NCBI GenBank assembly: GCA_030606485.1
Contig: JAUWGH010000003.1
Coordinates: 210,001-242,000, forward strand
Reading direction: 5' to 3'
Source: Promethearchaeota archaeon
Lineage (GTDB): Archaea; Asgardarchaeota; Lokiarchaeia; Sigyniarchaeales; SOKP01
Length of the DNA stretch: 32,000 bases
Shown: positions 5,837 to 9,759 of the stretch, one piece after another
Numbering within the stretch: position 1 is the stretch's first letter
How the letters are laid out: every line of letters starts with the position of its first letter
Notes under the pieces: generated by a model
What the model was told of the DNA's origin: nothing
Databases searched by the model: none
The model's input: the letters and a program-made list of their open reading frames with translations, nothing else
Translations under genes and position numbers: made by a program

Positions 5837-7801
5837 ATGGAAACTGAAGAAATAAGAATATTTGTAGCAGTATGTCGTTGAGGGATAAATATTGGTGGAT
5901 ACATCGATACAAAAGCTTTAGCTGAATATGCCAAAACATTACCTAATGTTGTAGCATCAAAAGACTATATAAGTATGTGTACTGAAGGTGGTGCAGTATT
6001 TATAAAAGACAACATGGAAGAGGCCAATTGCAATAGACTAATAGTTTGTGCTTGAACCCCTATAACACATGAACCTGTATTTAAGAAGGTTCTGGAAGGA
6101 ATTAATATTGATCCATCTTATTTAGAATTTTGCAATATTAGGGAGCATTCATCATTAGTCCATATGCATGATAAAGAAGGAGCATTAAAGGTGGCAAGAG
6201 ATTTGCTTCGTTCTGCTGTAGCAAGAGCCTTAAAATTAGAAAAAGTTCTAATTAGAGAGGTTGATGTAATCGATAAGATATTAATCATTGGTGGAGGAGT
6301 TGCGGGATTAAAGACTGCTATTGAATTAGCAGATGAGTATTTTGATGTATTTTTAGTAGAAAAAGAACCCACAATTGGTGGGAAGATGGCGATGCTTGAC
6401 AGAACATTCCCTACTGACGATTGTAGCATTTGAATTTTAGGACCTATAATGTTAGATGTTGCCCGAAATGAAAAAATTAGATTATTTACATATTCTGAAG
6501 TAACAGATATCTCAGGATATATAGGGAATTTTTCCGTTGAAATTACAAAAAAGCCAAGATATGTGAAGGATATTTGCAATGGCTGCAGTGCATGTATGGA
6601 TGTTTGCCCCGCGCGTGGTTATAACGAATTTAATCTTGGATTAAATCCTAGACCTGCGATTTACATTAGTTTTCCACAGGCAGTTCCTTCACTTGCCCAA
6701 ATTGATATGGATAAATGCATCAAATGTGGCTTATGCATTGGGGCCTGTGAGTTAGAAGCAATAGATTTTGACCAAAAAGCTGAAAAAATAAATGTAAAAG
6801 TAGGAACAATATCTGTAGCTACTGGTTGGGACGAATATATTCCAGAGGATGGTTACTTAGGATATAATAAATATGATAACGTAATTACTCAATTACAACT
6901 TGAACGAATTTTGGCACCAAATGGACCAACAATGGGCCAACTTGTAAGACCATCTGATGGGAAGGGACCCAAAAGGATTTTATTTATACAATGTGTTGGC
7001 TCACGAGATTTTAATAGAAACGTATATTGTTCAAGTGGAGTATGTTGTATGGTAAGTATAAAGAATTCAAAACTTATTAAACAGCATTACCCAGATGCAG
7101 AGATTACCGTTGCTTACATGGATATACGTGCATCGGGAAAATATTATGAGGAATATTATACTGCTTCTAGAATAGCAGGTGTAAAGTTTTTAAGAACTAA
7201 TATTTCTCGAATTGAAGAGGTTCCTGAAACGAAAAACTTGAGAATTTTCGTCCAAGATACATTAAGAGAATCTTTAGGTGTTCAAGAGATGGAATTTGAT
7301 TTAATTATTTTATCTGCTGCTATGATACCTAATTATGATATATTATCGCTGAATAAAATATTAAAATTGGAAGTTTCTCCTGATGGTTTTTTCAAAGAAA
7401 CACACCCAAGATTAGAACCAATAAATACTAAAATTCCAGGTATATCGCTTGCAGGAGTTTCTCAAGGGCCAAAGTCTATTGCTGAATCGATTATGCAAGC
7501 CGGGGGATCTGCAGCTTCAGCTGGGAAATTAATGATACGCAAAAAATACAAAATAGATCTGATAATTGCAGATGTCGACAAGGAAAAATGTAGCAAATGT
7601 GGATTATGTATATTAAACTGTTCATATAATGCTATTGATATGACGGAAGATGGAGCTGAAGTTGATGATATTAACTGTAGGGGTTGCGGTTCATGCCTTT
7701 CAAATTGTCCAAGTGAAGCAATAACTTTAAGATATTACAGAGAATCACACTATGAAGCCCAAATTGATGCATTATTAAAAGAGTTTGAAGAGGTGGCGTA
7801 G
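5837..7801 (+). CDS. hdrA: Heterodisulfide reductase subunit A-like flavoprotein, 654 aa, with three in-frame UGA (predicted selenocysteine at codons 15, 73 and 199)
   Basis: One reading frame from ATG 5837 to TAG 7801, interrupted only by TGA at 5879, 6053 and 6431. Contexts are VCR-U-GINIGG, VCA-U-TPITHEP and FPTDDCSI-U-ILGP. Also present: IIGGGVAG FAD motif, four ferredoxin CxxCxxCxxxC motifs and QCVGSRD...YCSSGVCC. Confidence 0.93.
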
Positions 7802-7806
7802 AAAGA

Positions 7807-8223
7807 ATGGAAAATTTAAAAATTCTGGCTTTTCTTTGTTTGAAATGAGGATATGGGGCAGCTGATATGGCTGGGACGATTCGAGCACAATATCCTACCA
7901 CAATTAGACCAATTAGGGTAAACTGTACAGCAAGAGTAACTCCAAGCTTAATCATGAGATCAATTGGTAATGGAGCCGATGGTGTTTTAGTAGTTGGATG
8001 ATATCCAGGTGAATGTGATTATGAAATTGGGAATAAAATTGCTTTAAAAAATGTGGAATACGTGCAAGAAATATTAGAAGTTATTGGTTTTAGCCCAGAG
8101 AGAGTATTTATGGAGTATTGTAGCTCAGCGGAAGGAGATAAATTCCAAAAAACTGCAATAATAACTTCGGAAAAGATTAATAAGCTTGGAAAAAGTCCCC
8201 TCAACAAATTAAAAACCGAATAG
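7807..8223 (+). CDS. mvhD: MvhD/VhuD (FlpD) [2Fe-2S] hydrogenase delta subunit, 138 aa, with two in-frame UGA (predicted Sec14 and Sec65); absent from the ORF track
   Basis: Manual translation: MENLKILAFLCLK-U-GYGAADMAGTIRAQYPTTIRPIRVNCTARVT...GADGVLVVG-U-YPGECDYEIGN...YCSSAEGDKF...LGKSPL. TGA at 7846 and 7999, stop TAG at 8221-8223. Confidence 0.93.
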
Positions 8224-8250
8224 AATGAATAATATGAATAAATTTTAGTC

Positions 8251-8290
8251 GTATTATGACTTCCTATCGCAATAGGATTCGGAATTATAC
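8251..8290 (+). promoter_or_regulatory. Candidate eukaryote-like (Loki-type) SECIS element 1 in the 3' UTR of hdrA-mvhD
   Basis: GTAT/ATAC lower helix, AUGA at 8256-8259 and GA at 8282-8283 (22 nt apart), C-G pair next to the core, and an upper hairpin TCCTAT-cgca-ATAGGA. Confidence 0.65.
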
Positions 8291-8357
8291 TTTTTTAATT
8301 TTTATATGGAAATATTTAAAAAAACTTAATCAAAATTTGCTTTTCTATTAAAATTCA

Positions 8358-8399
8358 AATATTATGACTTTTTATAAAATTTAAAAAATGAAATTTTTT
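8358..8399 (+). promoter_or_regulatory. Candidate SECIS element 2
   Basis: Repeats the 11-mer TATTATGACTT of element 1. AUGA at 8364-8367 and GA at 8390-8391 have the same 22-nt spacing. The stem is AU-only (TTTTT/AAAAA), so it is weaker. Confidence 0.45.
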
Positions 8400-8436
8400 A
8401 TTTTTTAATAATTTATTCAATCAGCAGAGATTTCCC

Positions 8437-9759
8437 ATGAAAGAGAGAGATAAACAAAATTTAATCGAATCTGCAAATAAAAAATTAAATAAAGCAGAAA
8501 GATTTTTCGAAATTGAGAATTATAATAAAGCCGCGAAACATTTCAAAAAAGCTGGAGAAGATTTCTTTAAAGTTGGGGAATATGATGCTGCTGAAAAAAT
8601 CTTTTCAATGGTAAGCAAATCTTATGAATACAGCCAAGAATATGAGAACATATCAGATTATTACAGGAAAGCAGCCAATGCCAGTTTAATGATAGATGAG
8701 TTTAATAAGGCAGGGCAAAGTTTTCAATTAGCGGCAAAATATGCTTTAAAGAAAGAAAGGTGCAAAGATCGAGATTTTAATGCATTGGTTTGTAGTAGTT
8801 TTTCATATTTCTGTTTTTTTTTATTGGGACGACAAGATAAAGGGTTAACATATATAAAATCAATAAAAGTCAAGGTGGATATGGATTCTTTTAGAGAGAA
8901 CATATTAACTCAACTAATAAAAAACATAACAACTGCAATCATTGAGAAAAATATTGAATCCCTGGAGGAAATTGAAAATAACCTAGAGAAATACAAATTT
9001 AGAAGGGGAGAATTACGATTAATAAAATTTGTATTACTTTTAGCTTATACTAATATTTCAATAAAAAATCAGCTAAATTTTAAAAAGGATAATTTCACAA
9101 CTGATGAAAAAATTGATTGTTCTCTTGATATTAATACAAAACCTTTACTTAATTTGACAGAAGATAAAGGTTTGAATTTTGAAATCAAAAAACTAACTTT
9201 TAATAATATAAGAATTACCGCTTCAAATAATTTATCAATAATAAGAAGGCCACAATTACCAATCGAATTGAATAAAGGAGAAAAAATGAATTTAAAGTTT
9301 AAGGCCGTTTCAAATTTTCCTGATCCAAAATCATTTTTTGGGCCAATATTAATAACTTCAAAAATAAATGAACTTTTAACATTTTATATAAAATCAAAAA
9401 TACAACATTTAAAGATTAGTTCTCCTCCTACGCAACTTGGAGTTTATTTTAAAAATTTAAGACCTCCATTAATAAATCAAACTTTTCCAATGGAGATAAC
9501 CGTTTCTAATAAAAGCACTGGAGAAGCTTTAGAAATTGAAATTGAACTAGAATTCCCTAAGGAATTAAAAGTTATGCGCGGGACAACTAAAAAACAATTA
9601 TATTCAATCAGACCAAATGAAGAGATAAGATGGGAAATTCAAGTTAAGCCACTTGAACCAGGTGAATTTGATATAAATACTACAGTAAAATATAATGATA
9701 GTGATAATAACATTATTGGTCCAAAATCAAAAGCATATCCAATAAAAATAAAGTTATAA
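8437..9759 (+). CDS. Hypothetical protein: N-terminal SNAP/TPR-like helical repeats plus two C-terminal beta-sandwich (Ig/CARDB-like) domains
   Basis: Repeated A..F.KA/Y.KAA helical units in the first ~200 aa. The last ~230 aa have alternating beta-strand patterns (FPMEITVSN, EIELEFP, WEIQVKP, FDINTTVKY). Confidence 0.7.
   Translation: MKERDKQNLIESANKKLNKAERFFEIENYNKAAKHFKKAGEDFFKVGEYDAAEKIFSMVSKSYEYSQEYENISDYYRKAANASLMIDEFNKAGQSFQLAAKYALKKERCKDRDFNALVCSSFSYFCFFLLGRQDKGLTYIKSIKVKVDMDSFRENILTQLIKNITTAIIEKNIESLEEIENNLEKYKFRRGELRLIKFVLLLAYTNISIKNQLNFKKDNFTTDEKIDCSLDINTKPLLNLTEDKGLNFEIKKLTFNNIRITASNNLSIIRRPQLPIELNKGEKMNLKFKAVSNFPDPKSFFGPILITSKINELLTFYIKSKIQHLKISSPPTQLGVYFKNLRPPLINQTFPMEITVSNKSTGEALEIEIELEFPKELKVMRGTTKKQLYSIRPNEEIRWEIQVKPLEPGEFDINTTVKYNDSDNNIIGPKSKAYPIKIKL

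Follow-up and report, generated by a model that had tools for sequence, protein, structure and literature searches.

How are five in-frame UGA codons, distributed over two adjacent genes, decoded in an AT-rich archaeal genome, and does this involve one RNA element or two? This question is raised by the hdrA-vhuD gene pair in the window, the 32,000-nucleotide stretch of DNA analysed here. The host genome comprises 3.75 Mb with 29% G+C; MAGs labelled Promethearchaeota (Lokiarchaeota) are most closely related to it, the cultured Promethearchaeum syntrophicum being more distant. The two genes and their UGAs are arranged as follows.

5837 to 7801, forward strand: hdrA, 654 codons when translated with TGA as U, stop codon TAG (7799-7801)
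5879 to 5881, 6053 to 6055 and 6431 to 6433, forward strand: in-frame TGA codons of hdrA (U15, U73 and U199, respectively)
7807 to 8223, forward strand: vhuD/mvhD (FlpD family), 138 codons, stop codon TAG at 8221-8223
7846 to 7848 and 7999 to 8001, forward strand: in-frame TGA codons of vhuD (U14 and U65, respectively)

These positions agree with the five UGAs that an earlier note on this sequence had counted. The hdrA product matched HdrA chains in the PDB with E = 2e-200 and contains Fer4 and FAD domains according to Pfam, and the vhuD product belongs to PF02662 (E = 1.8e-41). In the PDB alignments, U15 and U73 of HdrA lie opposite cysteines and U199 lies opposite the X (Sec) position of chain 9sfi_A; both U14 and U65 of VhuD are found opposite cysteines of MvhD/VhuD chains. 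In addition, a search of 40 related genomes revealed that both TGA codons of vhuD are retained in most close homologues. Elsewhere in the genome, a tRNA-Sec candidate detected with the Rfam model adjoins the gene for SepSecS (387 bits). Because the UGAs occupy Cys or Sec positions of solved structures, and because a tRNA-Sec candidate is present beside SepSecS, the selenoprotein reading of hdrA and vhuD is sound. The tRNA-Sec candidate itself is 113 nt long, may contain an intron and scores 47.1 bits, which is just at the Rfam cut-off; it is located with SepSecS on contig C2 of the host genome (G000), at 188523-190018. Running aragorn on the genome returned 15 tRNAs, with no SeC among them.

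The earlier note had proposed that two tandem SECIS-like kink-turns behind vhuD share the five UGAs, in the manner of vertebrate SelP. Our analysis leads to a different structure. We conclude with considerable confidence that the hdrA-vhuD mRNA, which we infer to be dicistronic, is served by a single lokiSECIS-type element at 8216-8282. An AUGA/GA SECIS of eukaryote-like type is thus indeed present behind vhuD, as had been claimed, but its core AUGA is at 8225-8228, which had been overlooked. The element is composed of the following parts.

8216 to 8282, forward strand: whole SECIS, a three-way junction that includes the final two codons of vhuD and its stop codon, from covariance models and MFE folding
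8216 to 8220, forward strand: helix I, 5' strand CCGAA, pairing with 8278-8282
8222 to 8223, forward strand: C-stem, 5' side, the AG of the TAG stop codon, pairing with C8260 and U8261
8224 to 8228, forward strand: bulge A8224, A8225 and U8226, followed by G8227 and A8228; the AUGA core is 8225-8228
8229 to 8257, forward strand: helix II (8229-8237 with 8249-8257, 9 bp including one G-U) and its apical loop (8238-8248)
8258 to 8261, forward strand: 3' core G8258 and A8259, followed by the 3' side of the C-stem, C8260 and U8261
8262 to 8277, forward strand: helix III, a hairpin of TCCTAT, loop CGCA and ATAGGA (8262-8267 with 8272-8277)
8278 to 8282, forward strand: helix I, 3' strand UUCGG; G8282 and the following A8283 are the first "GA" of the earlier note

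The lokiSECIS was defined by Mariotti 2016 (PMC4989117), whose text describes an AUGA, a 9-bp stem, an 11-nt apical loop and a GA after the stem, located near the end of the coding sequence, with a loop in which the first five bases are A-rich and the last base is a G usually preceded by an A. Every one of these sequence features is present here: the AUGA starts 1 nt after the vhuD TAG, the stem has 9 bp, and the apical loop of helix II, AUAAAUUUUAG, is 11 nt long, with an A-rich start and an AG end, and is followed after the stem by the GA. The strict pattern (AUGA, 9 bp, 11 nt, 9 bp, GA) has its sole match on either strand of the window at 8225-8259. When folded, the 80-nt element adopts a three-way junction at -15.0 kcal/mol, in which helix III branches from the non-bulged strand, helix I closes the junction and the vhuD stop codon lies inside it. 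The core reads as a classical kink-turn, with a C-stem, the 3-nt bulge AAU, tandem G.A/A.G pairs formed by G8227 and A8228 with G8258 and A8259, and an NC helix. An alternative in which AUAG (8220-8223) and CUAU (8265-8268) form a simple eukaryote-like lower helix was rejected, this pairing not being conserved in the paralogues.

Covariance models identified the same element. Model R1, whose training set includes the window's own sequence, scored 91.7 bits at 8211-8299, and with filters off it found one element between 5600 and 8600, the next best match reaching 12.5 bits. Model R2, trained on a set that excludes the window and its genus but built on an alignment made with R1, gave 74.9 bits (E = 2.8e-17) at 8211-8299, its only match in the 32-kb window at E <= 10. 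A search of the whole window with Rfam returned nothing at gathering score, and at E <= 10 the region 8150-8500 had no match to a SECIS family, the only hit being an irrelevant 18-bit match to a viral pseudoknot. Within the window both models thus place one element behind vhuD and none behind hdrA, whose stop codon is separated from the vhuD start at 7807 by a spacer of just 5 nt, as the earlier note had stated. The five UGAs lie 226, 379, 1794, 2172 and 2346 nt upstream of the SECIS. Since hdrA lacks its own element, the proposed action across a cistron boundary and over up to 2346 nt is supported, and it has been published for HdrA-VhuD of Lokiarchaeota (PMC4989117; PMC11227280).

To follow the element through evolution, we collected 30 loci from genomes belonging to the same order, using the best vhuD homologue of each. 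The SECIS pattern was found just behind vhuD in 28 of these loci, with the stop codon at the same place in most, and for most of these 28 orthologues unconstrained MFE folding, applied to each sequence on its own, produced a junction of three helices; of the 28 orthologous elements that entered the alignment, 24 have an 11-nt loop. In a plain MAFFT alignment 77% of cells were paired compared to 60% in shuffled alignments, with 100 compared to 36 both-side changes, and a model-fitted alignment of 29 sequences gave 80.9% compared to 61.2% and 119 compared to 40; related sequences are not independent, so that these shuffle counts overstate significance, and the better guards are slid controls, all of which were only about 35-41% paired in the model-fitted alignment, and a second group of vhuD paralogues. 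Judged by eye (not scored), the 22 loci of this second group have three arms in the same layout, with helix I reading UGUGUUA/UAACACA, the C-stem swapped to CU/AG and helix III reversed. R1 misses many loci of the group, which have a different helix I sequence and the same architecture according to a pattern scan.

Conservation is strongest in the core and in helix II. The AUGA core at 8225-8228 is present in 28 of 29 orthologues and is GUGA in the remaining one, so that the U, G and A columns are invariant; the 3' core shows no variation at its G and hardly any at its A, and the apical loop has invariant AAA columns and an almost invariant final G. Helix II is paired in 92% of cells, all nine of its pairs change on both sides, and its score was reached by 0 of 500 shuffles. 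Helix I is paired in 82% of cells (29 sequences), with both-side changes at three of five pairs. Within the C-stem, 27 of 29 sequences retain the G-C pair, and the A-U pair can be replaced by U-A or C-G. Pairing between A8222 and U8261 is absent from 10 of 29 orthologues, and the C-stem may therefore consist of one G-C pair only. Next to the G.A pairs, 13 of 29 sequences have a non-canonical combination, which is usual at the 3b.3n position of kink-turns.

A divergent version of the element was seen behind the vhuD homologues of Promethearchaeum syntrophicum MK-D1 and two Promethearchaeum MAGs (L078-L080), with a 10-nt loop, a helix II containing internal mismatches, the closing helix AUAUGG/CCAUAU and a side hairpin whose loop is CGCA or UGCA.

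Helix III required a separate analysis. Its fixed-column pairing in the model-fitted alignment is poor (62%) because the lengths of linker and loop vary, and its support comes from per-sequence folding: each of the 29 orthologous segments, comprising 27 distinct sequences, forms a hairpin of 3-6 bp when folded alone, and their summed MFE is -96.4 kcal/mol compared to -25.6 +/- 6.6 kcal/mol for shuffled segments. RNAalifold returned no consensus pairs for the isolated segments, in which variable loop and linker lengths shift the register. A G-Y-R triplet is found in all 29 segments and is GCA in 21 of them.

We also considered whether the hairpin at 8262-8277, together with the run of T residues downstream, is mainly a terminator or an RNA-stabilising 3' hairpin that adjoins a simple stem-loop SECIS by chance. 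The relevant downstream feature is the following.

8291 to 8304, forward strand: two oligo-T tracts, T6 at 8291-8296 and T5 at 8300-8304, the probable end of the hdrA-vhuD transcript

In 19 of 29 orthologues at least five consecutive T residues follow helix I at a distance of no more than 25 nt, compared to 8 of 29 for a run of A, and the published models require only core, stem and loop, all of which would suit such a reading. However, the covarying helix I, formed between coding sequence and the 3' side, encloses the hairpin, and the T-run follows helix I rather than the hairpin. Moreover, the G-Y-R triplet shared by all 29 hairpin segments would not be needed by a mere terminator stem, and archaeal termination is not known to require a hairpin. 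We therefore regard a chance neighbour of this kind as unlikely and favour helix III as an arm of the SECIS itself. Archaeal RNA polymerase terminates at oligo-T, and the hdrA-vhuD transcript most likely ends at the tracts at 8291-8304. Contigs from four public runs, examined for RNA evidence of this end, did not cover 8124-8527 and contained no transcript ends, a result that is neutral with regard to its position.

The observations from which the tandem model was drawn are correct as far as the letters are concerned. The 11-mer TATTATGACTT is present twice, at 8252-8262 and 8360-8370, and in both copies the AUGA (8256-8259 and 8364-8367) is followed by a GA (8282-8283 and 8390-8391) after exactly 22 nt. 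The repeat and the spacing are no more than expected by chance: TATTATGACTT occurs 13 times in the genome, an exact 11-mer direct repeat is found in about 3% of equally AT-rich 150-nt windows, and with one mismatch allowed there are 6 matches in the window compared to 2.4 expected. ATGA-N22-GA is present 3733 times in the genome, and in 369 of these cases at least five of seven outer positions are paired, as in the second copy.

For the first copy, the TCCTAT/ATAGGA hairpin is real and corresponds to helix III, but the AUGA/GA core and the GTAT/ATAC stem drawn around it are in the wrong register, because the upstream AUGA at 8225-8228 was overlooked. The AUGA at 8256-8259 consists of the last two bases of helix II and the GA of the true core. 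It is conserved in only 13 of 29 orthologues, in contrast to the 28 AUGA and one GUGA of the true core, and the corresponding GA reads GT (GGA to GGT) in two congeners with 93% VhuD identity. The GTAT/ATAC stem is paired in 48-50% of cells, and the whole first-copy structure is paired in 56.8% compared to 57.5% when it is slid by one column. Folding did not distinguish either copy from shuffled sequences (z = -1.4 for the first and 0 to +0.6 for the second). The first-copy fold is, in addition, incompatible with helix II, which covaries at all nine of its pairs.

Both folds can nevertheless be drawn on the window sequence, and the MFE structure of a truncated 44-nt segment takes the stem of the earlier note at -8.1 kcal/mol. 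This would accommodate a switch confined to this genus, in which the 3' half refolds into the first-copy kink-turn and two mutually exclusive SECIS conformers regulate recoding. For the 80-nt element, however, the preferred fold is the three-way junction (-15.0 kcal/mol). Congeners that are 93% identical in VhuD have lost the alternative core through the GGA to GGT change, and the alternative stem shows no covariation. We consider a switch of this kind highly improbable and retain the single three-way junction.

The second copy was then evaluated as an element in its own right.

8360 to 8391, forward strand: second copy of the earlier note, judged to lie outside the element; AT-rich, upstream of the gene at 8437-9759

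This region just meets the very loose type I rules of Huang 2024, with seven positions, two mismatches and an 8-nt loop, which together with the exact repetition of the 11-mer and its spacing is what speaks for a tandem arrangement. It is unstructured, however, and scored only 8.3 bits (E = 3.2) with R1 when filters were off; R2, as described above, has its single match elsewhere. Nothing corresponding to it was seen in three congeners, whose sequences resemble the window only up to about 8335 and then continue into a different gene, and it lies beyond the two oligo-T tracts. With a transcript end at 8291-8304, the second copy would not be on the mRNA and would represent a chance repeat. It overlaps the TATA-like sequence TTTATAAAA at 8371-8379 (by eye), ahead of the next gene at 8437, and is likely, judging from this position, to belong to the promoter region of the gene at 8437-9759. 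Orthologous loci carry one element behind vhuD, and no second model match was found directly behind vhuD in any orthologue. Given these results and the 369 equally good ATGA-N22-GA arrangements in the genome, two tandem elements sharing the five UGAs are very improbable. There is no evidence for a SelP-like division of labour between the UGAs, and the single lokiSECIS remains our preferred reading.

Several observations were made in the same region. Synteny with the three closest congeners (L002-L004) breaks about 50 nt after the T-tracts of the SECIS. The gene at 8437-9759 comprises 440 codons, with weak Pfam matches to TRAP_beta and TRAPPC13_C, both below cut-off. In one orthologous locus, a second model match of 33 bits (L028:165-252, minus strand) follows the vhuD SECIS at a distance of about 1.1 kb and is presumably located after a further selenoprotein gene.

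We also asked how the element is represented elsewhere in the host genome. A loose pattern (AUGA-9-11-9 followed by GA or AA, with at least eight pairs) was not enriched genome-wide, with 48 matches compared to 48-52 in random genomes, and addition of a loop filter resulted in enrichment (9 compared to 1-4). Five matches in the genome have an A-rich loop ending in AG, and each is located directly behind, or overlaps the end of, a UGA-containing ORF. Besides the element described here, they accompany a pair of vhuD paralogues, a vhuU-like gene and a tiny ORF, and judged by eye these four share more than the published core. The tiny ORF has 51 codons (contig C1 of G000, 355019-355171, minus strand; L082:320-472) and encodes a single-pass membrane peptide ending in GGG-U-C; 38 nt after it, at C1:354946-354980, is a canonical lokiSECIS with a three-way junction of its own. 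Over residues 1-49 the peptide is 92-98% identical in three congeners, and when used as a query it was not found in most other relatives, with three weak matches (E 0.004-0.009). Its product is a candidate small membrane selenoprotein, of a family not named in the main texts of the lokiSECIS papers.

Comparison with known systems places the element firmly among the lokiSECIS. Core, loop, GA and position at the end of vhuD are as described in the texts of PMC4989117 and PMC11227280, with no defining difference. The use of one SECIS for five UGAs in two cistrons is an already published arrangement: Mariotti 2016 (PMC4989117) described as unprecedented that one lokiSECIS should serve as many as six UGAs spread over about 2 kb, and Huang, Xiao and Zhang 2024 (PMC11227280) confirmed the same arrangement across Asgard archaea, with an Asgard type I eSECIS-like structure. 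The HdrA-VhuD pairs described there resemble the one in the window in having one element for both genes, a multi-Sec HdrA and an hdrA stop codon that is TAG and never TGA. The main texts of the lokiSECIS work differ in showing neither a third hairpin nor a closing helix, both of which are present in the window. No three-way junction appears in the main texts of PMC4989117, PMC11227280 and PMC13188914, and a full-text search for SECIS with "three-way junction" returned nothing relevant. The third arm and the closing helix therefore seem to be undescribed in the main texts of published lokiSECIS work.

Eukaryotic type I SECIS (RF00031 and others) share with the window the AUGA/GA quartet, the unpaired adenines at the start of the loop, a location in the 3' UTR and action over kilobase distances. 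Unlike them, the element in the window has a shorter upper stem of 9 bp and a branch on the 3' strand instead of a simple helix I with an internal loop, and it has no Rfam match. Vertebrate SelP likewise has several UGAs decoded from 3' signals, but it uses two SECIS for one ORF, whereas the window has one element for two cistrons. The VhuD SECIS of Methanococcales and Methanopyrus, as described in the text of PMC4989117, has the same gene upstream, similar AUGA/GAC sides and a short extra closing stem; unlike the window, its upper structure is the euryarchaeal GAA_A bulge and it serves vhuD only. Finally, a kink-turn with a branch from its non-bulged strand recalls the k-junction of the TPP riboswitch (Wang et al. 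2014, PMC4005666), in architecture only and with no sequence relationship; the secondary structure is compatible with it, apart from one or two C-stem pairs lying between the G.A pairs and the branch point.

How might such an element work? By analogy with the lokiSECIS family, the folded RNA would recruit the archaeal Sec-specific elongation factor, perhaps via a kink-turn-binding protein, and Sec-tRNA would then be delivered to ribosomes at all five UGAs in both cistrons, 226 to 2346 nt upstream. SBP2 was not found in Lokiarchaeota according to the text of PMC4989117, and the lokiSECIS literature, as far as its main texts go, contains no experimental demonstration of Sec insertion by any lokiSECIS, the family resting on computation.

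The position of the stop codon adds a further aspect. Among 30 orthologous loci from AT-rich genomes, 19 use TAG to terminate vhuD, and the G of this stop codon forms a pair with the C in the conserved GAC. Because this pairing is kept in 27 of 29 sequences, the choice of the vhuD stop codon seems to be constrained by the SECIS kink-turn. A ribosome terminating on vhuD must unfold helix I and the core. We tentatively propose, as a possibility that we hold to be somewhat less than probable, that helix III and the closing helix are functional, that the kink-turn within the three-way junction docks an archaeal SECIS-binding factor, and that each terminating ribosome melts and resets the element; the latter would follow from the location of the vhuD UAG inside the junction and the pairing of its G.

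Two elements would have made this the first archaeal double SECIS; one element was found instead. The window provides a clean further example of the lokiSECIS, which has been proposed as a link between archaeal and eukaryotic selenocysteine decoding. Its structural increment is a covarying junction that includes the stop codon and is absent from the two-helix models in the main texts of published work. Because the element is a three-way junction, searches and reporters restricted to AUGA, stem and GA may be incomplete. If our proposal for the junction is true, its resetting by the ribosome could link the capacity for recoding to operon translation.
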